A DNA stretch of 64,000 bases. Origin: Centroscyllium fabricii (taxonomy: Eukaryota). The stretch spans positions 135,408,001 to 135,472,000 of the forward strand of contig JBNRSN020000009.1 of assembly GCA_051313645.2 (NCBI GenBank), given 5' to 3'. The position numbers were made by a program, and so were the translations under genes. Position 1 is the stretch's first letter. Each line of letters opens with the position of its first letter. Below the pieces are notes generated by a model that was not told the origin of the DNA, made no database searches, and worked only from the letters and a program-made list of their open reading frames with translations. Of the stretch, positions 13,883 through 49,039 are shown piece by piece.

Positions 13883-16800
13883 CGCCTGTCCCAGTCCCTC
13901 CAGACAGAGCTTCTCCCAGTCCCTCCACAGACAGAGCTTGTCCGAGTCCCTCCAGACAGAGCTTGTCCCAGTCCCTCCAGACAGAGCTTGTCCCAGTCCC
14001 TCCAGACAGAGCGTGTCCCAGTCCCTCCAGACAGAGCGTGTCCCAGTCCCTCCAGACAGAGCGTGTCCCAGTCCCTCCAGGCAGAGCGTGTCCCAGTCCC
14101 TCCAGGCAGAGCGTGTCCCAGTCCCTCCAGGCAGAGCGTGTCCCAGTCCCTCCAGGCAGAGCGTGTCCCAGTCCCTCCAGGCAGAGCGTGTCCCAGTCCC
14201 TCCAGGCAGAGCTTGTCCCAGTCTCTCCAGACAGAGCATTTCCTAGTCCCCCAGACAGAGCGTTTCGTAGTCCTACAGAGCTTGTCCCAGTCACCCCAGA
14301 CAGAGCTTGTCCCAGTCACCCCAGACAGAGCTTGTCCCAGTCACCCCAGACAGAGCTTGTCCCAGTCACCCCAGACAGAGCTTGTCCCAGTCACCCCAGA
14401 CAGAGCTTGTCCCAGTCACCCCAGACAGAGCTTGTCCCAGTCACCCCAGACAGAGCTTGTCCCAGTCACCCCAGACAGAGCTTGTCCCAGTCACCCCAGA
14501 CAGAGCTTGTCCCAGTCCCTCCAGACAGAGCCTGTCCTAGTCCCTCCAGACAGAGCTTGTCCCAGTCCCTCCAGACAGAGCTTGTCCCAGTCCCTCCAGA
14601 CAGAGCTTGTCGTAGTCCCCCAGACAGAGTGTGTCCCAGTCCCTCCAGACAGAGCTTGTCCCAGTCCCTCCAGACAGTGTGTGTCCTAATCCCCCAGAGT
14701 GTGTCCTAGTCCCCCAGACAGAGCTTGTCCCAGTCCCTCCACACAGCGCTTGTCCCAGTCCCTCCAGACAGCTTGTCCCAGTTCCTCCACAGACAGAGCT
14801 TGTCCCAGTCCCTCCAGACAGAGCTTGTGCTAGTCCCCCAGACAGAGCATGTCCCAGTCCCTCCAGACAGAGCCTGTGCTAGCCCACCAGACAGAGCTTG
14901 CCCCAGTCCCTCCACAGACAGAGATGGTCCCAGTCCCTCCAGACAGAGCTTGTCTCAGGCCCTACACAGGCAGATCCTGTCTCTGTCCCCCAGACAGAGC
15001 TTGTCCCAGTCCCTCCAGACAGCTTGTCCCAGTCCCTCCACAGACATATGTTGGCCCTGTCACCAGACAGAGCTTGTCCCAGTGCCTCCACAGACAAAGC
15101 TTGTCCTAGTCCCCAGACAGATTGTGTCCCAGTCCCTCCAGACAGAGTGTGTCCCAGTCGCTCCAGAAACAGAGCTTGTCCCAGTCCCTCCAGACAGAGC
15201 TTGTCCCAGTCCCTCCAGACAGAGCTTGTCCCAGTCCCTCCAGACAGAGCTTGTCCCATTCCCACCAGACAGAGCTTCTCCCACTCCCTCCAAACAGCTT
15301 GTCCCAGTCCCTCCAGACAGAGCGTGTCCCAGTCCCTCCAGACAGAGCGCCTCACAGTCCCTCCAGACAGAGCTTGTCCTAGTCCCCCCAGACAGGGCTT
15401 GTCGCAGTCCCCCCAGACAGGGCTTGTCGCAGTCCCTCCAGACAGAGCTTGTCCCAGTCCCTCCAGAGAGGGCTTGTCCCAGTCCCTCCAGAGAGGGCGT
15501 GTCCCAGTCCCTCCGGACAGAGCTGGTCCCAGTCCCTCCGGACAGAGCGCGTCCCAGTCCCTCCGGACAGAGCGCGTCCCAGTCCCTCCGGACAGAGCGC
15601 GTCCCAGTCCCTCCGGACAGAGCGCGTCCCAGTCCCTCCGGACAGAGCGCGTCCCAGTCCCTCCGGACAGAGCGCGTCCCAGTCCCTCCGGACAGAGCGC
15701 GTCCCAGTCCCTCCGGACAGAGCGCGTCCCAGTCCCTCCGGACAGAGCGCGTCCCAGTCCCTCCGGGCAGAGCGCGTCCCAGTCCCTCCGGGCAGAGCGC
15801 GTCCCAGTCCCTCCGGGCAGAGCGCGTCCCAGTCCCTCCGGGCAGAGCGCGTCCCAGTCCCTCCGGACAGAGCGCGTCCCAGTCCCTCCGGACAGAGCGC
15901 GTCCCAGTCCCTCCGGACAGAGCGCGTCCCAGTCCCTCCGGACAGAGCGCGTCCCAGTCCCTCCGGACAGAGCGCGTCCCAGTCACCCAGACAGAGCGTT
16001 TCATAGTCCTCCAGACAGAGAGTGTCCAAGTCCCCCAGACAGAACTTGTCCCAATCACCCCAGATAGAGCTTGTCCCAGTCCCTCCAGACAGAGCTTGTC
16101 CCAGTCCCTCCAGACAGAGCTTGTCCCAGTCCCTCCAGACAGAGCTTGTCCCAGTCCCTCCAGACAGAGCTTGTCCCAGTCCCTCCAGACAGAGCCTGTC
16201 CCTGTCCCAGTCCCTCCAGAAAGAGCCTGTCCCAGTCCCTCCAGACAGAGCCTGTCCCAGTCCCTCCAGACAGAGCCTGTCCCAGTCCCTCCAGACAGAG
16301 CTTGCCCCAGTCCCTCCAGACAGAGCTTGTCACAGTCCCTCCAGACAGAGCTTGTCACAGTCCCTCCAGACAGAGCGTGTCCCAGTCCCTCCAGACAGAG
16401 CGCGTCCCAGTCCCTCCAGACAGAGCGCGTCCCAGTCACCCAGACAGAGCGTTTCATAGTCCTCCAGACAGAGAGTGTCCAGGTCCCCCAGACAGAACTT
16501 GTCCCAATCACCCCAGATAGAGCTTGTCCCAGTCCCTCCAGACAGAGCCTGTCCCTGTCCCAGTCCCTCCAGAAAGAGCCTGTCCCAGTCCCTCCAGACA
16601 GAGCCTGTCCCAGTCCCTCCGGACAGAGCGTGTCCCAGTCCCTCCAGACAGAGCTTGCCCCAGTCCCTCCAGACAGAGCTTGTCACAGTCCCTCCAGACA
16701 GAGCTTGTCACAGTCCCTCCAGACAGAGCGTGTCCCAGTCCCTCCAGACAGAGCGTGTCCCAGTCCCCCAGACAGAGCGTGTCCCAGTCCCCCAGACAGA

Positions 16801-19800
16801 GTGTTTCCTAGTCCCCAAGAACGTTTCGTAGTCCTCCAGACAGAGCGTGTCCCAGTCCCCCAGACAGAGCTTGCCCCAGTCCCTCCAGACAGAGCTTGTC
16901 ACAGTCCCTCCAGACAGAGCTTGTCACAGTCCCTCCAGACAGAGCGTGTCCCAGTCCCTCCAGACAGAGCTTGTGCTAGTCCCCCAGACAGAGCTTGTCC
17001 CAGTCCCACCAGACAGAGCTTGTCCCAGTCCCTCCAGACAGAGCGTGTCCCAGTCACCCAGACAGAGCGTTTCATAGTCCTCCAGACAGAGAGTGTCCAA
17101 GTCCCCCAGACAGAACTTGTCCCAATCACCCCAGATAGAGCTTGTCCCAGTCCCTCCAGACAGAGCTTGTCCCAGTCCCTCCAGACAGAGCCTGTCCCTG
17201 TCCCAGTCCCTCCAGAAAGAGCCTGTCCCAGTCCCTCCGGACAGAGCCTGTCCCAGTCCCTCCGGACAGAGCCTGTCCCAGTCCCTCCGGACAGAGCGTG
17301 TCCCAGTCCCTCCAGACAGAGCTTGCCCCAGTCCCTCCAGACAGAGCTTGCCCCAGTCCCTCCAGACAGAGCTTGTCACAGTCCCTCCAGACAGAGTTTG
17401 TCACAGTCCCTCCAGACAGAGCGTGTCCCAGTCCCTCCAGACAGAGCGCTTCCCAGTCCCTCCAGACATAGCGCGTCCCAGTCACCCAGACAGAGCGTTT
17501 CATAGTCCTCCAGACAGAGAGTGTCCAAGTCCCCCAGACAGAACTTGTCCCAATCACCCCAGATAGAGCTTGTCCCAGTCCCTCCAGACAGAGCTTGTCC
17601 CAGTCCCTCCAGACAGAGCCTGTCCCTGTCCCAGTCCCTCCAGAAAGAGCGTGTCCCAGTCCCTCCAGACAGAGCTTGCCCCAGTCCCTCCAGACAGAGC
17701 GTGTCCCAGTCCCTCCAGACAGAGCTTGCCCCAGTCCCTCCAGACAGAGCTTGTCACAGTCCCTCCAGACAGAGCTTGTCCCAGTCCCTCCAGACAGAGC
17801 TGGTCCCAGTCCCTCCAGACAGAGCTGGTCCCAGTCCCTCCAGACAGAGCTGGTCCCAGTCCCTCCAGACAGAGCTGGTCCCAGTCCCTCCAGACAGAGC
17901 TGGTCCCAGTCCCTCCAGACAGAGCTGGTCCCAGTCCCTCCAGACAGAGCTGGTCCCAGTCCCTCCAGACAGAGCTGGTCCCAGTCCCTCCAGACAGAGC
18001 TGGTCCCAGTCCCTCCAGACAGAGCTGGTCCCAGTCCCTCCAGACAGAGCTGGTCCCAGTCCCTCCAGACAGAGCTGGTCCCAGTCCCTCCAGACAGAGC
18101 TGGTCCCAGTCCCTCCAGACAGAGCTGGTCCCAGTCCCTCCAGACAGAGCTGGTCCCAGTCCCTCCAGACAGAGCTGGTCCCAGTCCCTCCAGACAGAGC
18201 TGGTCCCAGTCCCTCCAGACAGAGCTGGTCCCAGTCCCTCCAGACAGAGCTGGTCCCAGTCCCTCCAGACAGAGCTGGTCCCAGTCCCTCCAGACAGAGC
18301 TGGTCCCAGTCCCTCCAGACAGAGCTGGTCCCAGTCCCTCCAGACAGAGCTGGTCCCAGTCCCTCCAGACAGAGCTGGTCCCAGTCCCTCCAGACAGAGC
18401 TGGTCCCAGTCCCTCCAGACAGAGCTGGTCCCAGTCCCTCCGGACAGAGCGCGTCCCAGTCCCTCCGGACAGAGCGCGTCCCAGTCCCTCCGGACAGAGC
18501 GCGTCCCAGTCCCTCCGGACAGAGCGCGTCCCAGTCCCTCCGGACAGAGCGCGTCCCAGTCCCTCCGGACAGAGCGCGTCCCAGTCCCTGCGGACAGAGC
18601 GCGTCCCAGTCCCTCCGGGCAGAGCGCGTCCCAGTCCCTCCGGGCAGAGCGCGTCCCAGTCCCTCCGGACAGAGCGCGTCCCAGTCCCTCCGGACAGAGC
18701 GCGTCCCAGTCCCTCCGGACAGAGCGCGTCCCAGTCCCTCCGGACAGAGCGCGTCCCAGTCCCTCCGGACAGAGCGCGTCCCAGTCCCTCCGGACAGAGC
18801 GCGTCCCAGTCACCCCGGACAGAGCGTTTCATAGTCCTCCAGACAGAGAGTGTCCAAGTCCCCCAGACAGAACTTGTCCCAATCACCCCAGATAGAGCTT
18901 GTCCCAGTCCCTCCAGACAGAGCTTGTCCCAGTCCCTCCAGACAGAGCTTGTCCCAGTCCCTCCAGACAGAGCTTGTCCCAGTCCCTCCAGACAGAGCTT
19001 GTCCCAGTCCCTCCAGACAGAGCCTGTCCCTGTCCCAGTCCCTCCAGAAAGAGCCTGTCCCAGTCCCTCCAGACAGAGCCTGTCCCAGTCCCTCCAGACA
19101 GAGCCTGTCCCAGTCCCTCCAGACAGAGCTTGCCCCAGTCCCTCCAGACAGAGCTTGTCACAGTCCCTCCAGACAGAGCTTGTCACAGTCCCTCCAGACA
19201 GAGCGTGTCCCAGTCCCTCCAGACAGAGCGCGTCCCAGTCCCTCCAGACAGAGCGCGTCCCAGTCACCCAGACAGAGCGCGTCCCAGTCCCTCCAGACAG
19301 AGCGCGTCCCAGTCCCTCCAGACAGAGCGCGTCCCAGTCCCTCCAGACAGAGCGCGTCCCAGTCCCTCCAGACAGAGCGCGTCCCAGTCCCTCCAGACAG
19401 AGCGCGTCCCAGTCCCTCCAGACAGAGCGCGTCCCAGTCCCTCCAGACAGAGCGCGTCCCAGTCCCTCCAGACAGAGCGCGTCCCAGTCCCTCCAGACAG
19501 AGCGCGTCCCAGTCCCTCCAGACAGAGCGCGTCCCAGTCCCTCCAGACAGAGCGCGTCCCAGTCCCTCCAGACAGAGCGCGTCCCAGTCCCTCCAGACAG
19601 AGCGCGTCCCAGTCCCTCCAGACAGAGCGCGTCCCAGTCCCTCCAGACAGAGCGCGTCCCAGTCCCTCCAGACAGAGCGCGTCCCAGTCCCTCCAGACAG
19701 AGCGCGTCCCAGTCCCTCCAGACGGAGCGCGTCCCAGTCACTCCAGACAGAGCGCGTCCCAGTCCCTCCAGACAGAGCGCGTCCCAGTCCCTCCAGACAG

Positions 19801-22800
19801 AGCGCGTCCCAGTCCCTCCAGACAGAGCGCGTCCCAGTCCCACCAGACAGAGCGCGTCCCAGTCCCACCAGACAGAGCTTGTCCCAGTCCCACCAGACAG
19901 AGCGCGTCCCAGTCCCACCAGACAGAGCGCGTCCCAGTCCCACCAGACAGAGCGCGTCCCAGTCCCACCAGACAGAGCGCGTCCCAGTCCCACCAGACAG
20001 AGCATGTCCTAGTCACCCAGAGCGTTTCATAGTCCTCCAGACAGAGAGTGTCCTAGTCCGCCAGACAGAGCTTGTCCCAGTCACCCCAGACAGAGCTTGC
20101 CCCAGTCTCTCCAGACAGAGCTTGTCCCAGTCCCTCCAGACAGAGCTTGTCCCAGTCCCTCCAGACTGGAGCGTGTCCCAGTCCCTCCAGACTGGAGCGT
20201 GTCCCAGTCCATCCAGACAGAGCGTGTCCTAGTCCCCCCAGACAGGGCTTGTCGCAGTCCCTCCAGACAGAGCGTGTCCCAGTCCTTCCAGAGAGAGCGT
20301 GTCCCAGTCCCTCCAGACAGAGCTTGTCCCATTCTCTCCAGACAGAGCTTGTCCCAGTCTCTCCACAGACAGAGCTTGTGCTAGTCCCCCAGACAGAGCT
20401 TGTCCCAGTCCCTCCAGACAGAGCGCGTCCCAGTCCCACCAGACAGAGCGCGTCCCAGTCCCACCAGACAGAGCGCGTCCCAGTCCCACCAGACAGAGCG
20501 CGTCCCAGTCCCACCAGACAGAGCGCTTCCCAGTCCCACCAGACAGAGCGCGTCCCAGTCCCTCCAGACAGAGCATGTCCAAGTCACCCAGACAGAGCGT
20601 TTCATAGTCCTCCAGAGAGTGTCCTAGTCCCCCAGACAGAGCTTGTCCCAGTCACCCCAGACAGAGCTTGCCCCAGTCCCTCCAGACAGAGCTTGCCCCA
20701 GTCCCTCCAGACAGAGCTTGTCCCAGTCCCTCCAGACAGAGCGTGTCCCAGTCCCTCCAGACAGAGCGTGTCCCAGTCCCTCCAGACAGAGCTTGTCCCA
20801 GTCCCTCCAGACAGAGCTTGTCCCAGTCCCTCCAGACAGAGCTTGTCCCAGTCCCTCCAGACAGAGCTTGTCCCAGTCCCACCAGAGAGAGCGTGTCCCA
20901 GTCCCTCCGGACAGAGCTTGTCCCAGTCCCTCTGGACAGAGCTTGTCCCAGTCCCTCCGGACAGAGCTTGTCCCAGTCCCTCCGGACAGAGCTTGTCCCA
21001 GTCCCTCCGGACAGAGCTTGTCCCAGTCCCTCCGGACAGAGCTTGCCCCAGTCCCTCCGGACAGAGCTTGCCCCAGTCCCTCCGGACAGAGCTTGCCCCA
21101 GTCCCTCCGGACAGAGCTTGCCCCAGTCCCTCCGGACAGAGCTTGCCCCAGTCCCTCCGGACAGAGCTTGCCCCAGTCCCTCCGGACAGAGCTTGCCCCA
21201 GTCCCTCCGGACAGAGCTTGCCCCAGTCCCTCCAGACAGAGCTTGCCCCAGTCCCTCCAGACAGAGCTAGTCCGAGTCCCTCCAGACAGAGCGTGTCCCA
21301 GTCCCTCCAGACAGAGCTTGTGCTAGTCCCCCAGACAGAGCTCGTCACAGTCCCTCCATAGAGACTTGCCCCAGACCCTCCAGTTTGTCCCAGTCCCTCC
21401 AGAGCGTGTCCCAGTCCCTCCAGACAGAGCTTGTCCCAGTCCCCCAGACAGAGCTTGTCCCAGTCCCTCCAGAGCCTGTCCCATTCCCCCAGACAGAGCT
21501 TGTCACAGTCCCTCCACAGACAGCTTGTCCCAGTCCATCCACAGACAGAGCTTATCCCAGTCCCTCCAGACAGAGCTTGTCCCAGTCCATCCAGACAGAG
21601 CTTGTCGTAGTCCCCCAGACAGAGTGTGTCCCAGTCCCTCCACAGACAGAGCTTGTGCTAGTCCCCCAGACAGAGCTTGTCCCAGTCCCTCCAGACAGAG
21701 CTTGTCCCAGTCCCTCCAGACAGAGCTTGTCCCAGTCCCTCCAGACAGCTTGTCCCAGTCCCTTCAGACAGAGCTTGTGCTAGTCCCCCCCAGACAGAGC
21801 TTGCCCCAGTCCCTCCACAGACAGAGATGGTCCCAGTCCCTCCAGACAGATCTTGTCTCAGGCCCTACACAGACAGAATTTGTCCCTGTCCCCCAGACAG
21901 AGCTTGTCCCAGTCCCACCAGACAGAGCTTGTCCCTGTCCCTCCAGACAGAGCGCGTCCCAGTTCCTCCAGACAGAGATTGTCCCAGTCCCACCAGACAG
22001 AGCGTGTCCCAGTCCCACCAGACAGAGCGTGTCCCAGTCCCTCCAGACAGAGCGTGTCCCAGTCCCTCCAGAGCGTTTCCTAGTCCTCCAGACAGAGAGT
22101 GTCCTAGTCCCCCAGACAGAGCTTGTCCCAGTCCCTCCAGACAGAGCGCGTCCCAGTCCCTCCAGACAGAGCGCGTCCCAGTCCCTCCAGACTGGAGCGC
22201 GTCCCAGTCCCTCCAGACTGGAGCGCGTCCCAGTCCCTCCAGACTGGAGCGCGTCCCAGTCCCTCCAGACTGGAGCGCGTCCCAGTCCCTCCAGACTGGA
22301 GCGCGTCCCAGTCCCTCCAGACTGGAGCGCGTCCCAGTCCCTCCAGACTGGAGCGCGTCCCAGTCCCTCCAGACTGGAGCGCGTCCCAGTCCCTCCAGAC
22401 TGGAGCGCGTCCCAGTCCCTCCAGACTGGAGCGCGTCCCAGTCCCTCCAGACTGGAGCGCGTCCCAGTCCCTCCAGACTGGAGCGCGTCCCAGTCCCTCC
22501 AGACTGGAGCGCGTCCCAGTCCCTCCAGACTGGAGCGCGTCCCAGTCCCTCCAGACAGAGCGCGTCCCAGTCCCTCCAGACAGAGCGCGTCCCAGTCCCT
22601 CCAGACAGAGCGCGTCCCAGTCCCTCCAGACAGAGCGCGTCCCAGTCCCTCCAGACAGAGCGCGTCCCAGTCCCTCCAGACAGAGCGCGTCCCAGTCCCA
22701 CCAGACAGAGCTTGTCCCAGTCCCACCAGACAGAGCTTGTCCCAGTCCCACCAGACAGAGCGCGTCCCAGTCCCACCAGACAGAGCGCGTCCCAGTCCCT

Positions 22801-38997: not shown

Positions 38998-39004
38998 TAC
39001 TCAC

Positions 39005-39105
39005 AGGGTTTCAACGTAGGCATTCTGGTCGACATTCCATACCTTGACCGAGCGGTCATGGGAGGCGCTGTATAACTGATGCGTTCCTTTCCTAAAGGAC
39101 AGGCC
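39005..39105 (-). CDS. RRP9: RRP9 coding exon (101 nt)
   Basis: GLSFRKGTHQLYSASHDRSVKVWNVDQNAYVET(L); tcag acceptor, gtgagt donor, ends phase 2. Confidence 0.96.
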
Positions 39106-40177
39106 CTGAGGGAAGAACAGAGCAGTTAATGGAGGCCGTGCAGGAGCTGGAGATACAAAAGGCTATGGGTGGAGAGCAACTTTAACCACTTAAAAGCAGA
39201 AGGACGCCTTCAAAGTTCTCTACATTTTCCAAAGACGATTTTCTGTAAAAATTCTAACGCTATCCCCTCTCTCTCCCTTTGTAGCCATCTCAAGTACCCA
39301 AAGTAAAGTTTAATGTACCGAAGACAATTTCTCTCAAGGTGATGGGTTCACCGGTCTTTGTAGTGTTGTGTGCTTTTGTTCCGACTGCTCATCATTCCTT
39401 CTCCCACCCCACTATGATGGGTGACACCAAGAACCCATTCCCCAGTGATCTACACCACCAGGGCAACGTTGCTGGTTATCTTATAGATTCTCATGTTTAC
39501 TGCTTCCCCCAGTGCCTGGGTTGCCATTTTCAATGCAAGTTTGTTAGTTTATTTTCTCGGGCATTTTTCCATACACAGTTGGATACAGTCAATAGTCACA
39601 AGATTGTGCAGCACCAACAGCAGTACCTCAACCGTTGTCAGAAATTTGCACAAAAAATACAGGCAAACCACAGCCCCAAGGTGTGTCTCTGCTGCTGTTC
39701 CTGCACAAGGTTCCTGTGAAGCAATAATCACTCCTTGCCACCAGGGGGCAGCTGAACACCACACCAGGGCTCAAAATGTCCGAGAAAAGATTTCCCTTCC
39801 GAAGCTCAGCGCCACACCAGCCAGTGCTGGAGCTCTGATGGCAAGCGCCGTTCATCGTTAAACACGCTCCTGATCAGAGCTACCAACTCCACTAGCTGAA
39901 AAAAATTAGTCAGGAAATCCTGATGCTTCCTCGTGCTGCCTTAATACCCAACACCCCTCTTGCTGCCCAACTGCTAGAAATAATTGGTTATAAACTGGAT
40001 AAAAGGTGCTACTTTCTCCACTAGTACCCAGGGCCTTATCCTACTCCCTTAACATTAAAGGCATCATTTCAAAGTTGGCAGACGACATGAAATGTGGAAA
40101 TGTAGCCAACAGCGAGGAGGATAGTAACACCTCACGAGGGCGTAGACAGATGGGTGAAATGGACAGACACGTGGCAG

Positions 40178-41371
40178 ATTCAATTCAATTCAAGTTTTAT
40201 TGTCATTGCAGAGTAGTAGTACAATACAACGAGATGAAGACTCGACGCTCCTGAGAGTAGTGCAAATAAATTACATGCAAATTGCATACAGTAAAGTACA
40301 TTTCAGGTGTGCAGGTACCGGAGTTTAAAAAAAAAGAGTTCAGGAGGCTGACAGCCCTGGGGAAGAAGCTGTTCTTAAATCTGGTCGTGCTGGTGCGAAT
40401 TGATCTGTAGCATCTCCCGGAGGGCAGGGGGGAGAACAGACTGTGGCTGGAGTGTGTGGGGTCTTTAATAATGTTCAGAGACCTCCATAGGCAGCGTTGG
40501 AGGTAGATGCTTTCCATTGACAGTAGCTGAGTACCGGTGATTCGTTGGGCAGTTTTGATTACCCGCTGCAGGGCCGAGATGGTGTAGTTTCCATACCAGA
40601 CTGTGATGCAGCTTGTCAGTATGCTTTCGATTGTGCAGCGGTAGAAGTTGGAGAGGATGCCGGATGACAGCCTGGCTTTCTTCAGCTTCCTTAGGAAGTA
40701 CAGGTGCTGTTGGGCCTTCTTAACCAGAGAGGAGGTGTTTAGTGACCAGGAGAGGTCTTCCGAGATGTGGACGCCGAGGAACTTGAAGCTGGACACCCTT
40801 TCCACCTCAGCCCCTTGGATGAAGATGGGGGTGTGTCTTCTGCTTTCAGTCCTCCGGAAGTCCACTATGTTCTCCTTAGTATTCTTGGTGTTCAGTGCTT
40901 GGTTGTTATCGGCACACCATCCCACAAGGCGCTGAATCTCATCCCTGTAGGCTAACTCATCGTTGTTGGTGATCTGGCCAACCACCGTGGTGTCATCCGC
41001 AAACTTGATGATCGTGTTGGAGCCATGGACAGCCGCACAGTCGTGAGTGAAGAGGGAGTAGGAGGGGGCTCAGCACACAGCCTTGTGGGGGCCCCCGTGT
41101 TCAGGGTAAGGGGGGGGGGGGGGGGGGGGGGGGAGGAGGGGAGGTTGCCTAACTTCACAGACTGTGGTCTGTTGGTTAGGAAGTCCAGGGTCCAGTTGCA
41201 GAGGGAGGTGTTCAGGCCGAGGGTGAGGAGTTTGGTAGACAATTTGCTGGGGACGATGGTGTTGAATGCTGAGCTGTAGTCAATAAACAGCATTCTGATA
41301 TGTGTATCTTTGCTATCCAGGTGGTTTAGTGCAGAGTGAAGAGCCGTTGTGATTGCATCTTCCGTAGATCT
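40178..41371 (-). mobile_element. Rex1/Babar-clade LINE, 5'-truncated
   Basis: [12 protein letters not shown]...[35 protein letters not shown]-terminal FKNSFFPRAVSLLN; (TTGAA)n tail at 40178. Confidence 0.88.
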
Positions 41372-41864
41372 GTGAAGTGTTAAGTGATGCACTTTGGTAG
41401 GAAGAATGAGGAGCGGGAATATTAACGACATGGCCCAATATTAACAGGGGTGCAGGAACACCATCCCACACCTGTTAATATTGGGCCATGTCGTTAATAT
41501 TCCCGCTCCTCATTCTTCCTACCAAAGTGCATCACTTAACACTTCACAGATCTACGGAAGATGCAATCACAACGGCTCTTCACTCTGCACTAAACCACCT
41601 GGATAGCAAAGATACACATTTCAGAATGCTGTTTATTGACTACAGCTCAGCATTCAACACCATCGTCCCCAGCAAATTGTCTACCAAACTCCTCACCCTC
41701 GGCCTGAACACCTCCCTCTGCAACTGGACCCTGGACTTCCTAACCAACAGGCCACAGTCTGTGAAGTTAGGCAACCTCCCCTCCTCCCCCCCCCCCCCCT
41801 TACCCTGAACACGGGGGCCCCCACAAGGCTGTGTGCTGAGCCCCCTCCTCTACTCCCTCTTCAC
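41047..41864. repeat. ~400-bp near-perfect inverted repeat (arms 41047-41448 and 41471-41864, 22-nt loop)
   Basis: Opposite-strand ORFs 40952..41431(-) and 41488..41808(+) translate almost identically. Confidence 0.95.
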
Positions 41865-44708
41865 TGCAAGAAGTATAAGGAACAAGGCAGGGGAGTTAGG
41901 GGCATGGATGGCGGCATGGGACTACGATGTGGTGGCCATTACAGAGACATGGCTGGAGCAGGGACAGGACTGGATGCTTGGGGTCCCGGGATACAGAAGC
42001 TTCTGGAGGAACAGGGAGGGAGGAAAGCGCGGGGGGGGGGGGGGGGGGGAGTAGCACTGCTGGTCAAGGACAACGTGACGGCTACAGAAAAAAACTTTGA
42101 GGGGGGACACACGAACGGAGGTAGTATGGGCGGAGCTTAGGAATAGGAAGGGGGCGGTAACGTTAGTGGGAGTCTTCTATAGACCACCAAATAGTAGCAG
42201 GGAGGTGGAGGAGGAAATTGCGCGACAAATAAAGGAAAGATGTGGGGGACAGAGGGTAGTTATAATGGGAGATTTCAATTTCCCTAATATAGACTGGAAT
42301 CTAGGTAGGTCAAGGAGTGCAGAGGGTGAGATTTTCCTACAATGCATACAGGAAGGTTTCCTGACACAATACGTGGAGGAACCAACAAGGGGGGGGGGGC
42401 AACGTTGGACCTGGTTCTGAGAAATGAACCAGGCCAAGTGGTAGAACTGGGGGTAAGGGAGCACTTTGGGGACAGTGACCACAATTCGGTGACGTTCACA
42501 ATAGTAATGGAGAAGGATAGGAGCAGGAGGCAGGGTAAGGTATACAGCTGGGGGAGGGGAAATTACGACAGGGTTAGGCATGATTTAGCTAATACCAATT
42601 GGGAACGGGAACTTGCGGGGAGAGGAACGGAAGAAAAATGGAGAGTGTTCAGGGAGAAAATTTTGAAAGCCCTGGATAAGCATGTCCCGAGTAGGATGGG
42701 AAAAAAGGGTAAGATGAGAGAACCATGGATCACGAAAGAGGTAGAACAACTAGTAAAAAAGAAGGAAGCATATGATAAAATGAGAAAACAGAGTACAGAA
42801 GGGGCGGGAAGGGAGTACAAAGAAGCAAGGAAAAATCTGAAAAATGGGCTAAGGAAGGCAAAGGGAGGGCACGAGAAGGCATTAGCGAGAAGGATAAAGG
42901 AGAACCCTAAGGCTTTCTATGCGTACGTAAGAAACAAAAGGATGACTAGGGTAAGAGTAGGGCCGATCAAAGACAGCAAGGGAGAAACGTGCACGGAGCC
43001 AGAGGAAATTGGGGAAGCACTAAACGAATATTTTGCATCCGTGTTCACAAGGGAGAGGGAACAAAAAGTAGAGGGGGAGTTCAAGATACAAGGGGAAACG
43101 ATGGGGGAAGTAAATATCCAGAGGGGGGAGGTATTAGATATTTTGGAGAAACTAAAGGTAGACAAATCTCCTGGGCCAGACGGGATGTATCCAAGGATTC
43201 TCTGGGAGGCGAGGAACGAAATCGCAGAGCCACTGACCTCTATCTTTAGATCATCGCTATCCTCGGGGATAGTCCCCGAGGACTGGAGAGAGGCGAATGT
43301 GGCTCCCATATTTAAAAAGGGGAAAAGGGACGTGCCAGGGAACTACAGACCAGTCAGCCTCACCTCAGTGGTTGGAAAGATGATGGAAAGGGTCCTGAGG
43401 GACAAGATCTACGACCATCTAGAAAGGGGCAAATTAATCAGAAGCAGTCAGCACGGTTTTGTTAAGGGTAAATCGTGTCTGGCCAACCTGATAGAATTCT
43501 TTGAAGAGGTGACCAAGAGTGTGGACGAGGGAAAGGCGGTTGATGTCATATATATGGACTTCAGCAAGGCGTTCGACAAGGTCCCGCACGGTCGGCTCAT
43601 GAAGAAAGTAAGGAGTTGCGGGGTAAGCAACAAAGTGGTGGGATGGATTGAGAACTGGCTGGCTCAGAGGAAGCAGAGGGTAGTGGTAGAAGGCCAATAC
43701 TCGAGCTGGAGACCGGTCACCAGCAGGGTACCACAGGGGTCGGTGTTGGGGCCACTACTGTTTGTAATCTTCATCAATGACTTGGAGGAGGGGGCTGAGG
43801 GGTGGGTCAGCAAATTTGCGGATGACACAAAGATTGGGGGAGTAGTGGATGAGGAGGAAGGGAGTAGAACGATTCAGAGGGATATAGGCAGGATGCAGAG
43901 CTGGGCTGAAGAATGGCAAATGGAGTTCAACACGGGGAAATGCGAGGTGATGCACTTCGGCAGGGCAAATAGGAAGAGGGAATATAGGGTCAACGGCAGG
44001 ATCCTGAGTGAAGCAGAGGAGCAAAGGGATCTGGGAGTATATGTACACAGATCACTGAAGGCTGCCACCCAGGTGGACAAAGCAGTAAAAAAGGCCTATG
44101 GTGTATTGGCCTTCATCAACAGGGGAATAGAGTTTAAGAACCGGGAGGTCATGCTGCAGTTGTACAGGTCACTGGTGAGACCACACGTGGAGTACTGTGT
44201 GCAGTTCTGGGCACCGTACTACAGGAGGGATGTGGAGGCACTGGAAAGAGTGCAGAGGAGATTCACCAGGATGCTGCCGGGAATGGGGGGAAAGTCATAC
44301 GAGGAAAGGTTAAGGGAACTGGGACCCTTCTCCCTGGAACGAAGAAGGAAGAGGGGGGACCTGATAGAGATGTATAAAATGATGAAGGGGATCGACAGAG
44401 TCAATGTGCAAAGACTGTTTCCCCGGGCGGGAAGAACGACAACAAGAGGACACGAGCACAAGATTCAAGGAGGAAGATTCAGACGGGATGGCAGGGGCAA
44501 GTTCTTCACACAAAGAGTGGTCGGGGAATGGAATAGGCTACCATCTGAAATAGTGGATGCGGACAGTCTGGGTGCTTTTAAAAGGATGATAGACAGATAC
44601 ATGGAAGGGAAGGAACAGTAGGGGGGACAGGAAAAATCAGAGACGGAATAAGGGCGGCACTACATTGAGGGCCCAAGAGCCTGTACAGTGCTGTATGTTC
44701 TATGTTCT
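41865..44708 (+). mobile_element. Young CR1 LINE with near-complete ORF2 (APE endonuclease + RT)
   Basis: ARSIRNK, AITETWL, IMGDFNFP, SDHN, DFSKAFDKV, PQGSVLGP, KFADD; 759-aa ORF 42342..44621; (tatgttc)n tail; aaca on both flanks. Confidence 0.95.
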
Positions 44709-44892
44709 AACAGAGACACAAGCCTTTGAAGGGGGCAAGTTGAGCGGGCTGTTAAAAAGGCCTCTGGATTCTTGGCTTTATAAATAGCGGCAGCGAGTAC
44801 AAAAGAAAGTTATATTAAGCCTTCATAAATCACTAGTTAGGCCCCAGCTGCAATATCATGTCTAATTCTGGGCACCACACTTTAAGAAGGAT

Positions 44893-45796
44893 GACACAAA
44901 GCTGGGTGGGCGTGTGTGCTGTGAGGAGGATGCCGAGAAGCTCCAGGATGATTTGAACAGGTTGGGTGATTGGGCAGATACAATATAATGTGGATTAGAA
45001 TGCAGTAAATGCGAGGTTATTCACTTTGGTGGCAAAAACAGGAAGGTAGATTATTATCTGAATGGCAATAGATTGGGAGAAGGGGAAGTGCAATGAGACC
45101 TGGGTGTCCTTGTGCACCAGTCGCTGAAGGTAAGCATGCAGAAGGCGGTTAATAAGGCAAATGGTATGTTGGCCTTCATAGCGAGAGGGTTCGAGTACAG
45201 GAACAAGGATGTCTTGCTGCAGTTGTACAGGGCCTTGGTGAGACCACACCTCGAGTATTGTGTAGTTTTGGTCAACTTATCTGAGGAAGGATGTTCTTGC
45301 CATGGAAGGAGTGCAGAGAATATTTACCAGGCTGATACCTGGGATGGCAAGAATGACGTATGAGGAGAGATTGGGTCGATTAGGCTTGTACTCACTGGAG
45401 TTTAGAAGAATGAGAGGGGATCTCATCGAAACTTATAAAATTCTAACAGGACTAGACAGACTACATGCAGGAAGGAAGCTCCCGATGGTCGGGGAGTCCA
45501 GAACCAGGGGTCACAATCTGAGGATAAGGGGTAAGCCATTTAGGACAGAGATGAGGAGAAATTTCTTCACCCAGAGAGTGGTGAACCTGTGGAATTCTCT
45601 GCCACAGAAGGCAGTAGAGGCCAATTCATTAAATATATTCAAGAAGGAGTTAGATATATTTCTCAAGGCTAACGGTATCAAGGGATATGGGGAGAAGGCA
45701 GGGACAGGGTTCTGAATTTGGATGATCCCTGATCCCATTGAATGGCGGAGCAGGCTCGAGGGGCCGACTCCTGCTCCTATCTTCTATGTTTCTATG
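44893..45796 (+). mobile_element. CR1 3' fragment nested in the old CR1
   Basis: DDTKLGG...KANGMLAFIARG...NLWNSLPQ plus ttctatgtttcta tail. Confidence 0.9.
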
Positions 45797-46344
45797 TCAA
45801 GGTCTTAGGGAGGGTGCAGAATAGATTTAAGAGAATGATGCCAGGGGTGAAAGACTTCAGTTGCATGGAGAGACAGGAGAAACTGGAGCAGAGAAGGTTA
45901 AGGGGAGATTTGATAGAGGTGTTCAAAATCATGAAGGGGTTTGATCGAGTAAATAAGGAGAAACTGTTACCATGGCAGAGGGGTTGGTAACCAGAGGAGA
46001 CAGATTTACGGTAATTGGCAGAAAAACCAGAGGCGAGATGAGGAAATTACTTTTTCCGCAGCGAGTTATGATGATCCGAATGCACTGGCTGAAAGGGTGG
46101 TGGAAGCAGATTCAATAATAACTTTCAAAAGGGAATTAGATAAATACTTGAAATGGAATAATGTGCAGGGTTATGGGGAACTGGGACTAATTGGATCGCT
46201 CTATCAAAGAGCCGGCGCAGGCACGATGGGCCGAATGGCCTCCTACTGTGCTGTATCATTCTATTTAACTCTTTGAAAGGGACAGTCTCTTCCACATATA
46301 ACCTTCATCTCCTGCCCACCCTGCCCCCCCCAATGCTGACTCAC

Positions 46345-46437
46345 CGATATTGTGTCTTTATGTCCTTTGAACGTGTAAAGGTGTCGGCAGGAGGCGGGGT
46401 CCCAGATCAAGATCAGCTTGTTTCGGTCTCCTGTAGC
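46345..46437 (-). CDS. RRP9: RRP9 coding exon (93 nt)
   Basis: ATGDRNKLILIWDPASCRHLYTFKGHKDTIS; gcag acceptor, gtgagt donor. Confidence 0.96.
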
Positions 46438-46929
46438 CTGCAGGGAAAGGAAAGGCAGTTAGATCCGATGCTGGGTGCACGGTCACAGAGACACTACCCA
46501 CCAAATCTACAGTAACCTTCGCATACATCATCAGATTCTACAAAACAACTGCCCATACATACTCAGTGAGACAAATCACGCCCACTATGGCTGTATAACT
46601 CAATGCACTGGAGGTCACCTCACCCCAGATAGTGAGACTATATGGGAGTGTTCAGGAACCGACATTTAAAAACGAGCCCTACATGAAATGACCGTCTCAA
46701 CCAATCCAATTGTAGTGGGTAAGAACTACCCCCAACTTGGCACTGGATGGACTACTTTACTTGGAACGACCACAGGATGACTGATGTGGGAAACAGCAAA
46801 TATCACACACTGGTGCAGTAGGGGACACGCTTATGAATTTGGGGCTTAAGCACGCTGTTGGGACAAAGTAGGAGCTGCTTCATGCTGCGTCTAACCTGTG
46901 CTATGCCCGACAGGGGAGCACTCGATGTT

Positions 46930-47570
46930 AGCCTTGGTTCAGTGGTAGCACTCGCGCCCTTGAGTCAGAAGGTCATGAGTTCTGAGCCCCAGGCTGACAC
47001 TCCGGGGCAGTACTGAGGGAGTGCTGCACTGTCGGGAGGTGCAGTCTTTCGGATGAGCTGTTAAAGAATTTCTTCACCTAGAGAGTGGTGAACCTGTGGA
47101 ATTCTCTATCACAAAAGGCAGTAGAGGCCAAGTCATTAAATATATTCAAGAAGGAGTTGGATATATTTCTAAGAGCTAAAGGGATCAAGGGATATGGGGA
47201 GAAGGCAGGGAACAGGGTACTGAGTTTGGATGATCAGCCATGATCTCATCGAATGGCGGGGCAGGCTCGGTGGGCCGAATGGCCTACTCCTGCTCCTATC
47301 TTCTGTTAAACCGAACCGAGCTCCTATCTGCCTTCTGAAGTGGACATAAAGATGACATGGCGCTATTTTGATGAAGAGCAGGGGAGTTCTCTCCAGTACC
47401 CTGGTCAATATATTTATCTCTCAACATTAAAGCAGATTATCGTGCAATTTGCTGTTTGTGCACAAATTGGCAGCTGCATTTGCTACATTACAACAGCTCC
47501 ACATGGGCTATAAAGTGCTTTGTGATGCCCGGAGATCATGAAAGGCGCTATAGAAATGCAAGTCCTTTCT
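46930..47570 (+). mobile_element. Deu-domain SINE interrupted by a CR1 3' end (~47065-47302)
   Basis: tRNA-like head ttggttcagtggtagcac...gagtcagaagg; ctgttaaa duplicated on both sides of the CR1 piece; tail gaaaggcgctatagaaatgcaagtc. Confidence 0.82.
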
Positions 47571-47620
47571 TGATACTGCCTTAAGTGGCACCTCAAGCAC
47601 AAACCGCACAGAAAGAGTAA

Positions 47621-48339
47621 GGGGGATAAAAGTGAGTGGCACCCCCTTTTGGGCGCTAACCTCGGCGGGGCGCTACTTTTAGCGCCCTGAAAATGTTTGC
47701 GCCGTTCTGCTGCAAATTCAGTTGTCGTGCCCCAAGCAGGAGGTGGGGCGCTCCTGGAAGCGCTGCATCTCGTTCCTGGGGCGCTGCGACTGAATATCTT
47801 GCCGCTGCGTGCAGCACGTCGCGCCGTGGTACTGCAGGCCTTCCACCCTTTAAAGGGGAGGGGCCTAGCGCAGTGCGACCCAGGGACCAGCTCGGCCACC
47901 GGGGATCAGGAGTGCCGGTAAAAGAGCCCGGCAGTCGAGAGAAGTGCCGGGCTCACGGAGCGCAGCCGGCACTCCGCAGGGGAGCTGCAGAGGAGGCCGG
48001 GGGCAGCAGAGGAGGCAGGTGCCAGCAACAAAAATGGCCGCCCGGCACCGCTCCTTTAACTTGCACTGCCCCGGCTGCAGGTACGCCCCCCTGACCCCAT
48101 CAGACAAAGCGTCCGCCGGTAAGTCAGGGGGCGCAACTGAAGATCGCGGCCGGGGCACAAGCAGGGCGCTGCGCACGGCGATGATGTCATCACCAGCGGC
48201 GCAGCACCACGGGGCGCTAACTGCTACCGCGAACCTTCCACTGAATTTCACAGGAGGCGTGGACGATGCCACATCCAGGCGCCAGGTGATCCCCTCTTAG
48301 GGCGCTAACGGCTGGCGCAAGCAACCCAATTTCTAGCCC
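47621..48339. mobile_element. CpG-rich putative non-autonomous DNA element
   Basis: Abrupt GC/CpG-rich block with repeated gggcgctaac motifs; right end aatttctagccc resembles the 38008 MITE terminus; left terminus only weakly matches. Confidence 0.5.
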
Positions 48340-48344
48340 ATAGA

Positions 48345-48455
48345 TGTAAGAAGTCACACAACACCAGGTTACAGATCAACAGTCTGGACTATAACCTGGT
48401 GTTGTGGGAAGTCTTGCATTTGTCCATCCCAGTCCAACACCGGCACCTCCACATC
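48345..48455. mobile_element. Minimal Penelope-like insertion (inverted terminal pieces) with 12-bp target duplication
   Basis: ctagcccataga at 48333 and 48456; internal cacaacaccaggtta / taacctggtgttgtg inverted repeat. Confidence 0.78.
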
Positions 48456-48514
48456 CTAGCCCATAGAGTTTAACAGTCCCCGACTGGGATGGTGCAGGAG
48501 ATGGAGCCACTCAC

Positions 48515-48639
48515 CAGGTACTTGCCATCTGACGAGATTGCCATGGAGAGGATGTGCATCGTGTGGCCCACATGTCGATCTGCCGTTCCCTTGCGCCCGC
48601 CGTGGATTGTGTGAACCTTCTTCCCACTGGTAATGTCCC
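48515..48639 (-). CDS. RRP9: RRP9 coding exon (125 nt)
   Basis: (W)DITSGKKVHTIHGGRKGTADRHVGHTMHILSMAISSDGKYL; MAISSDGKYL identical to human; phase matches the previous exon across a 122-nt intron. Confidence 0.96.
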
Positions 48640-48761
48640 CTAGACGTGGGCGAGACACAGTATCAAGCACCGCCCTTTAAAGATGCCGATTCTCAATAAG
48701 GAGACACGGAGCACGAAGGGCCGGTCAAACCCCAGCCTGCACGCGGGCTGCATAAACTCAC

Positions 48762-48888
48762 ACTTAATGATGGAACAATCTTTGGATGCTGAGAATATGT
48801 ATTTATCATCGGGAGACAGAACCAGACACGTGACTGGAAGCTGGTGGCCTCGTAACAGGCGGATCTCGGATACATCCGGGGGCAGATA
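48762..48888 (-). CDS. RRP9: RRP9 coding exon (127 nt), first WD40 repeat
   Basis: YLPPDVSEIRLLRGHQLPVTCLVLSPDDKYIFSASKDCSIIK(W); ttcag acceptor, gtgagt donor. Confidence 0.96.
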
Positions 48889-49039
48889 CTGAAAGAAGAT
48901 AAAAATAGGGTTACTGTCACTTTCAAAGTCCAACTACAGGGGCAGAGAGACGCACGGACACATCCAGTTACGGGGAGGAATGGTAACCTAGATATCGGTT
49001 ACACTGTTTGCAAAATCGGGGAGGGGAGAAAGAGGTTTT

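Follow-up and report, generated by a model that had tools for sequence, protein, structure and literature searches.

Fold-back inversion of host DNA at a retroelement insertion is a class of scar already known from human L1. The available sections of Nam et al. (2023) describe short fold-back inversions 5′ of the target site in three somatic L1 insertions and in one more with an internal inversion (0.3% and 0.1%), with 52-220 bp of synthesis (PMC10191854), and the accessible parts of a preprint report two L1 insertions, from a cell clone and a tumour, with an inverted duplication on the reciprocal end, for which self-annealing of the resected 3′ overhang is proposed (bioRxiv 10.1101/2024.12.14.628481, Fig. 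4A, D, E). In zebrafish, the extra 5′ nucleotides of the ZfL2 long interspersed element (LINE) are described, in the passages available, as copied from flanking DNA in annealing-type joining (PMC4245944, PMC4760211, PMC2666801). Snap-backs primed by complementary DNA (cDNA) are reported at R2 insertions in the part accessible (PMC11371274), and fold-back inversions at yeast double-strand breaks are attributed, in the sections at hand, to a hairpin formed via imperfect microhomology, followed by synthesis and by capture of the opposite end through 0-5 bp of microhomology (PMC11724301). The present work concerns the insertion of a young CR1-type LINE in an intron of RRP9 (U3-55K), within a 64,000-nucleotide (nt) window (the whole stretch of DNA analyzed) drawn from the 7.2-Gb genome of Centroscyllium fabricii. 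An inverted copy of the upstream flank lies between the target end and the CR1, and the original is retained. We put at about 70% the probability that a single repair event produced this junction, in which the free target end on the upstream side served as primer in three successive steps, giving a 10-nt direct copy, the 394-nt inverted flank copy and the join to the CR1.

The junction consisted of the following parts:

41047-41448 (402 nt), plus strand: left arm, the pre-existing flank on which the fold-back copy was templated (arm alignment)
41449-41470, no strand: hairpin tip, in which 41467-41469 pair with 41450-41452, with a terminal mismatch 41470/41449 and a 14-nt loop at 41453-41466
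41457-41460, plus strand: left copy, aaca, of the target-site duplication (TSD) (sequence)
41461-41470, plus strand: 10-nt filler, a direct copy of 40917-40926 (sequence match)
40911-40926, plus strand: likely filler template, of which 40911-40916 match the target end at 5/6 and 40917-40926 were copied
41471-41864 (394 nt), minus strand: right arm, the inverted copy of 41047-41448 (arm alignment)
41859-41865, plus strand: join of arm and CR1, a 6/7 microhomology with the flank base kept at 41864
41865-44709, plus strand: young CR1-type LINE, 5′-truncated near the start of open reading frame 2 (ORF2) (endonuclease and reverse transcriptase (RT) domains, family copies)
44709-44712, plus strand: right copy, aaca, of the TSD, its first base common to the tail

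The palindrome was the closest long inverted pair of the window, with a loop of 14 nt between the arms. Alignment confirmed the inverted copy and agreed with the differences that a sequence-only reading of this DNA had counted by eye, namely two substitutions (41168/41751 and 41299/41620), a 2-nt indel (an AG that the left arm lacks after 41059) and a G-run that is 24 long in the left arm and 14 in the right. Judged against 23 family copies, both substitutions were derived on the right arm, that is, on the copy, and the 2-nt deletion was derived on the left, template arm, AG being present in 22 of the 23. Locus-specific bases at 41087 and 41348 were common to both arms. The copy crossed the boundary at 41373/41374 between a Rex1-type element and the old CR1-type fragment that holds the target site, and the 87-nt piece of this old CR1 was near-identical only to the two arms among the 41 genome matches listed, the next best reaching 87%. 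Since the arms share locus-specific bases, the boundary is crossed and no other near-identical source was among the matches listed, the template was local to the locus, and the earlier claim that the copy was made here after insertion of the Rex1-type element was borne out. The surrounding features were as follows:

39001-48933, minus strand: part of the host gene RRP9 (U3-55K) (exon matches)
40054-40188, plus strand: portion of the old CR1-type fragment upstream of the Rex1-type element (aligns with family copies L210 and L214)
40180-41373 (left end approximate), minus strand: 5′-truncated Rex1/Babar-type LINE nested in the old CR1 (Pfam, genomic copies)
41374-41460, plus strand: old CR1-type fragment with the target site (family copies)
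44713-44830 (right end approximate), plus strand: continuation of the old CR1-type fragment, with about 18 nt gone 4-5 nt into it

The insertion sits between the RRP9 exons near 46.4 kb and at 39.0-39.1 kb. The Rex1-type element carried Pfam RVT_1 (below cut-off) and PF09004, and had 23 genomic copies, 3.8-6.4% diverged, whose alignments reach 41371-41373. Across it, the other half of the old CR1 was found at 40054-40188, where the alignment with L210 and L214 stops 2-6 nt short of the point at which 41374 resumes. The Rex1/Babar label of 40180-41373 and the CR1 family labels are presumptive, with domain assignments from Pfam. As read from this nesting, the order of insertion is old CR1-type, then Rex1-type, then young CR1-type.

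Pfam domains in the coding region of the young element were endonuclease and RT, with frameshifts in homopolymer runs, and its 3′ end fits the family copies to 44709, as in a non-LTR (long terminal repeat) element that has an intact 3′ tail and was inserted by target-primed reverse transcription. From its ORF2 layout and short tandem tail we take it to belong to the CR1 clade. The aaca motif flanked the inverted copy and the CR1 together, the old CR1 resuming beyond; the putative duplication is 3-4 nt, because the first A of the right aaca is also the last tail base. The sequence-only reading had placed the cut of the old CR1 at ggaaca/gagac, with aaca at 41457 and 44709, and this was supported by eight of ten family copies, which read GAGA after GGAACA as the window does at 44713; next to it, about 18 nt are absent from the window.

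Compared with 75 locus rows of at least 98% identity, which include some insertions fetched twice, the young CR1 showed 10 private substitutions at 2,843 positions (0.35%). This rate predicts about 2.8 differences between the arms, against two substitutions and one indel seen, and the arm divergence fits the age of the CR1 as estimated from these counts. Error-prone copying, considered for the two substitutions on the copy, was dropped, as age by itself accounts for their number. The CR1 subfamily is very young: full identity over 271 nt was scored for 11 other copies, and 163 pattern hits marked CR1 truncations within one short window near the 3′ end.

Three joins connect the target end with the CR1. 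At the first, the target end at 41455-41460 matched 40911-40916 at five of six bases, and the next 10 bases equalled 40917-40926. The 13-nt identity of 41458-41470 with 40914-40926 had two occurrences in the window, against 0.02 expected, and the filler sequence (Rex1-type) was present in 2 of 203 non-local 1-kb windows; judging from these matches, the filler template is probably, though not certainly, the local one. The 10-nt filler recognized earlier was thus present, and it is templated, which the sequence-only reading had overlooked. At the second join, the end of the filler pairs with 41450-41452 through 3 bp plus a terminal mismatch (3/4), in a small hairpin that adjoins the target end and has a 14-nt loop. 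The copy stops short of the target end by 8-12 nt, and its far end abuts the CR1 exactly. At the third join, the arm end matched the CR1 family at six of seven bases, and the T described earlier as a 1-nt overlap is indeed shared but belongs to this longer microhomology. The whole is a patchwork of nearby templates joined via short mismatched microhomologies (5/6, 3/4 and 6/7). Patchworks of templated insertions are a signature of polymerase theta (Pol theta), and 394 nt is long for this enzyme. The product carries the filler A and not the arm C at the second join, and at the third the flank C and not the family A, which is present in 28 of 29 other copies. As a mismatched primer keeps its own base, retention of the left-hand donor's base at both joins favours left-to-right top-strand synthesis from the upstream target end.

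The palindrome is real. Contigs of runs X1 and X2 each covered 41419-41500 unbroken and with 0 differences (depth 4 and 2); the two runs are two samples of one study, with the library not on record, and may include the assembled animal. The limits 41419-41500 would be what a 31-mer graph yields at a palindrome tip. These contigs bear on the read check proposed earlier at the tip; the join of arm and CR1 and the 3′ join were not seen in reads, and a tip-crossing piece was not among the pieces listed for runs X3 and X4. No RNA sample was among those listed for the sequence. An empty-site joint was not among the 15 of 26 joints listed, and the unbroken contigs suggest that X1 and X2 hold no empty allele, though at just these depths. 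Long palindromes can arise from chimeric reads, and the common study of X1 and X2 and the unseen arm join leave some room for this. However, contigs of two samples cross the tip without a difference. At three positions one arm departs from the state found in 22-23 of 23 family copies, and each arm carries at least one such derived change; a chimera is also not expected to give a filler and microhomologies. An assembly or fold-back read artefact is thus largely refuted and keeps next to no probability.

The locus shares with the L1 cases of Nam et al. an inverted copy of upstream flank between the target end and the element, and its rarity; in the available sections those cases are ascribed to extra DNA polymerase synthesis. 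They are somatic, from human L1 and 52-220 bp long, whereas the present insertion is CR1-type, apparently inherited, and carries 394 nt after a 10-nt templated step. The preprint cases are alike in that the small hairpin relies on about 2 bp of homology; they keep a TSD-like duplication, to which the putative TSD here would correspond. They are unlike in that the accessible parts do not describe a templated filler before the hairpin. ZfL2 is also a non-L1 vertebrate LINE with flank-derived 5′ extras, but the passages available describe several extra nucleotides and do not mention a long inverted copy. Kajikawa 2012 is reportedly the primary source on these extras. The yeast fold-backs form without a retroelement and are, in the sections at hand, mostly 5-34 bp. 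L1 twin priming likewise makes a 5′-end inversion during insertion, but there element sequence, from the element RNA, is inverted; here the inverted segment is host flank and the CR1 is colinear, so the distinction drawn earlier held. The novelty implied by the sequence-only reading exceeded the literature, in which the same architecture is described for L1. Compared with the published L1 cases, the locus is somewhat longer and more layered, and a published CR1 case was not found in the literature searched, which lacks most subscription papers.

As had been proposed, the 5′ ends of the subfamily were scanned for inverted flank copies. The survey comprised 150 other 5′ junctions with 0.9-3 kb of flank each, 95 obtained via similarity searches and 55 via truncation-picking patterns, with 30 of the 163 hits of one truncation pattern fetched. 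L119 (without flank), loci that duplicate an insertion already counted, four repeated and 12 non-truncated pattern hits, and seven older similarity loci with 5′ ends beyond the fetched DNA were left out. The sample is enriched for ORF2-start truncations, 5′-end positions are approximate for full-length copies, and an arm that exceeds the flank in length would escape detection. Inverted flank copies occurred at 1 of the 150 junctions (95% interval 0.02-3.7%) and long flank copies in either orientation at 3 (0.4-5.7%). The inverted case, L225/L243 (G000:C331, ~16,100-20,030, contig of 39 kb), carries a 218-nt copy, 100% identical, at the CR1 5′ end; its template lies ~640-850 nt upstream of the target end, and the arms are ~640 nt apart. 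L225 also has a short direct match ~700 nt upstream, which could be a first step. L026/L218 (G000:C1044, ~321,989,600-321,993,000) has serial direct copies, 7 nt from ~400 nt upstream and then 100 nt, and a possible 5-nt TSD, and at the 5′ end of L221/L244 (G000:C2, ~181,413,200-181,416,800) there is a direct copy of 25 nt whose source lies ~700 nt upstream. L279 showed a short slip duplication.

Several candidates were rejected. The L028 palindrome, with 154-nt arms that end 83 nt upstream, was a dispersed palindromic repeat; the L261 palindrome consisted of two old CR1 copies at 86%; the 18-nt inverted ends around 1.2 kb at L291, where L097 has the same end, were read as a transposon interrupting the CR1; and direct matches at L024, L085, L107, L112, L121, L131, L142, L145, L231, L237, L272 and L275 were pre-existing repeats or tandem arrays. 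The element with 18-nt inverted ends seems to interrupt young CR1 copies at two loci (L291 and L097) and may be a recently active DNA transposon. The dispersed palindromic repeat at L028/L165 and L024 has near-perfect arms (L028: two mismatches in 154 nt) and is presumably a Penelope-type inverted pair.

The focal case, L026, L221 and L225 were all truncated within ~10 nt of one another near the ORF2 start. A test of this position was prompted by L026, and the comparison used an independent sample. Templated copies of at least 25 nt, a threshold chosen after seeing the data, were found at 2/16 junctions at the ORF2 start and 0/133 elsewhere (p = 0.011); for at least 15 nt the counts were 2/16 and 3/133 (p = 0.09), and against the pattern controls alone 2/16 and 2/39 (p = 0.57). 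A truncation hot spot at the ORF2 start was not supported, with 13 truncated copies against 7 in an equally conserved control window (p = 0.26). The link of long flank copies with ORF2-start truncation is a weak, suggestive lead. It is doubtful, though conceivable, that in this CR1 lineage a cDNA stopping at the ORF1/ORF2 boundary leaves a long-lived break, and that serial template switching from the upstream target end, with a first jump of 400-700 nt upstream, patches it.

For the RRP9 locus, the following course is proposed. The CR1 endonuclease would nick the target and the RT would make bottom-strand cDNA to ~41865. The top-strand 3′ end at 41460 would then anneal to 40911-40916 and copy 10 nt, and the new end would fold onto 41450-41452 of its own strand, single-stranded after bottom-strand resection, and copy ~400 nt. 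Finally, the extended end would anneal to the CR1 cDNA via the 6/7 match and prime the second strand. The enzyme would probably be a host repair polymerase, of either the Pol theta or the Pol delta type. DNA fold-back is still the best fit, given the tip at the target site and the two joins that keep the mismatched base of the left-hand donor. The inverted case L225 likewise keeps a flank base, beside a 3-nt overlap, which adds weakly to the fold-back direction. The copy and the insertion likely came from a single event, as their ends coincide and their ages agree.

Several points weigh against this proposal. The 2-nt deletion, being on the template arm, must be later, allelic or an assembly error, and the pairing at the tip is just 3 bp. 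The polarity argument turns on two single bases, and a cDNA jump with a 1-nt overlap plus chance matches, or one later substitution, would yield the same sequence (each ~1 in 1,000, a post hoc estimate). The step that makes the filler requires the bottom strand at 40911-40926, just outside the stretch needing resection, and the filler sequence is also in other Rex1-type copies, so its template may be non-local. The TSD and the 18-nt gap are reconstructed from family copies alone, with no empty allele seen, and the polymerase cannot be told from sequence.

The same product might have been made in the opposite direction, and this is unlikely but deserves weight: the CR1 cDNA 3′ end would jump, at 41046, to the bottom strand of the flank upstream, be extended toward the nick by RT or a host polymerase, copy 10 nt of the top strand after a switch at 40926, and anneal to the target end. 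This route yields the same orientation, run-off near the nick would account for the tip position, and there are precedents in the available parts of the sources, in the template-jump model for ZfL2-2 extras (PMC2666801) and in cDNA-primed synthesis on nearby rDNA at R2 insertions (PMC11371274). Priming through the full microhomologies, however, would by this route have left the base of the CR1 at 41864 and that of the arm at 41470, and the opposite was seen at both.

A far smaller chance is given to a template switch in which RT left the CR1 RNA for nascent RRP9 pre-mRNA of the minus strand and reverse-transcribed 394 nt of intron, although RRP9 runs minus-strand across the site and one co-inserted local pre-mRNA piece is reported at L1 in the available sections (PMC10191854). 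The sequence-only reading had set this route aside on the ground that such a copy would be direct, and had preferred DNA fold-back during completion of the 5′ end; the preference stands, but the ground was wrong. Because CR1 cDNA forms the bottom strand, a jump onto minus-strand RRP9 RNA would leave an insert whose top strand has the sequence of that RNA, which makes the copy inverted, and orientation does not exclude RNA. What disfavours it is that an RNA template continues past the insertion site, making the halt 8-12 nt from the target end a coincidence, and that the direct filler and the polarity of the mismatched bases are left unaccounted for. Inverted duplications can form at any break, according to the sections at hand (PMC11724301), and the palindrome might in principle be an ordinary break-repair product, earlier or later than the CR1. 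This is very improbable, since the copy begins and ends at the insertion junctions, the putative TSD encloses it together with the CR1, the ages agree, and three other family copies bear long flank copies exactly at their 5′ ends.

In RRP9 pre-mRNA, 41047-41864 on the minus strand is predicted to form a near-perfect 400-bp RNA hairpin, mostly Rex1-type (-850 kcal/mol), and the intron hairpin is a possible source of double-stranded RNA. A 21.7-kb satellite with a 25-nt period and ~870 copies was also observed within an RRP9 intron (window 13887-35592).

The locus holds a genuine and rare scar of DNA repair. Its class is known, the element family is new, there is no sign of function, and the product is probably functionless. 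A single locus represents a rare accident and not a new system. With it, a type of scar familiar from somatic insertions of human L1 is seen at a CR1-type insertion that is apparently inherited. The junction bears on how LINE 5′ ends are joined and which strand primes: the bases kept at its three mismatched microhomologies indicate the upstream target end as primer, and hundreds of truncated family members are available for counting this base readout. If the link with the ORF1/ORF2 boundary were true, the choice of repair route would depend on the truncation site, and a genome-scale readout of the strand that primes 5′ joining could be taken from inherited CR1 junctions.

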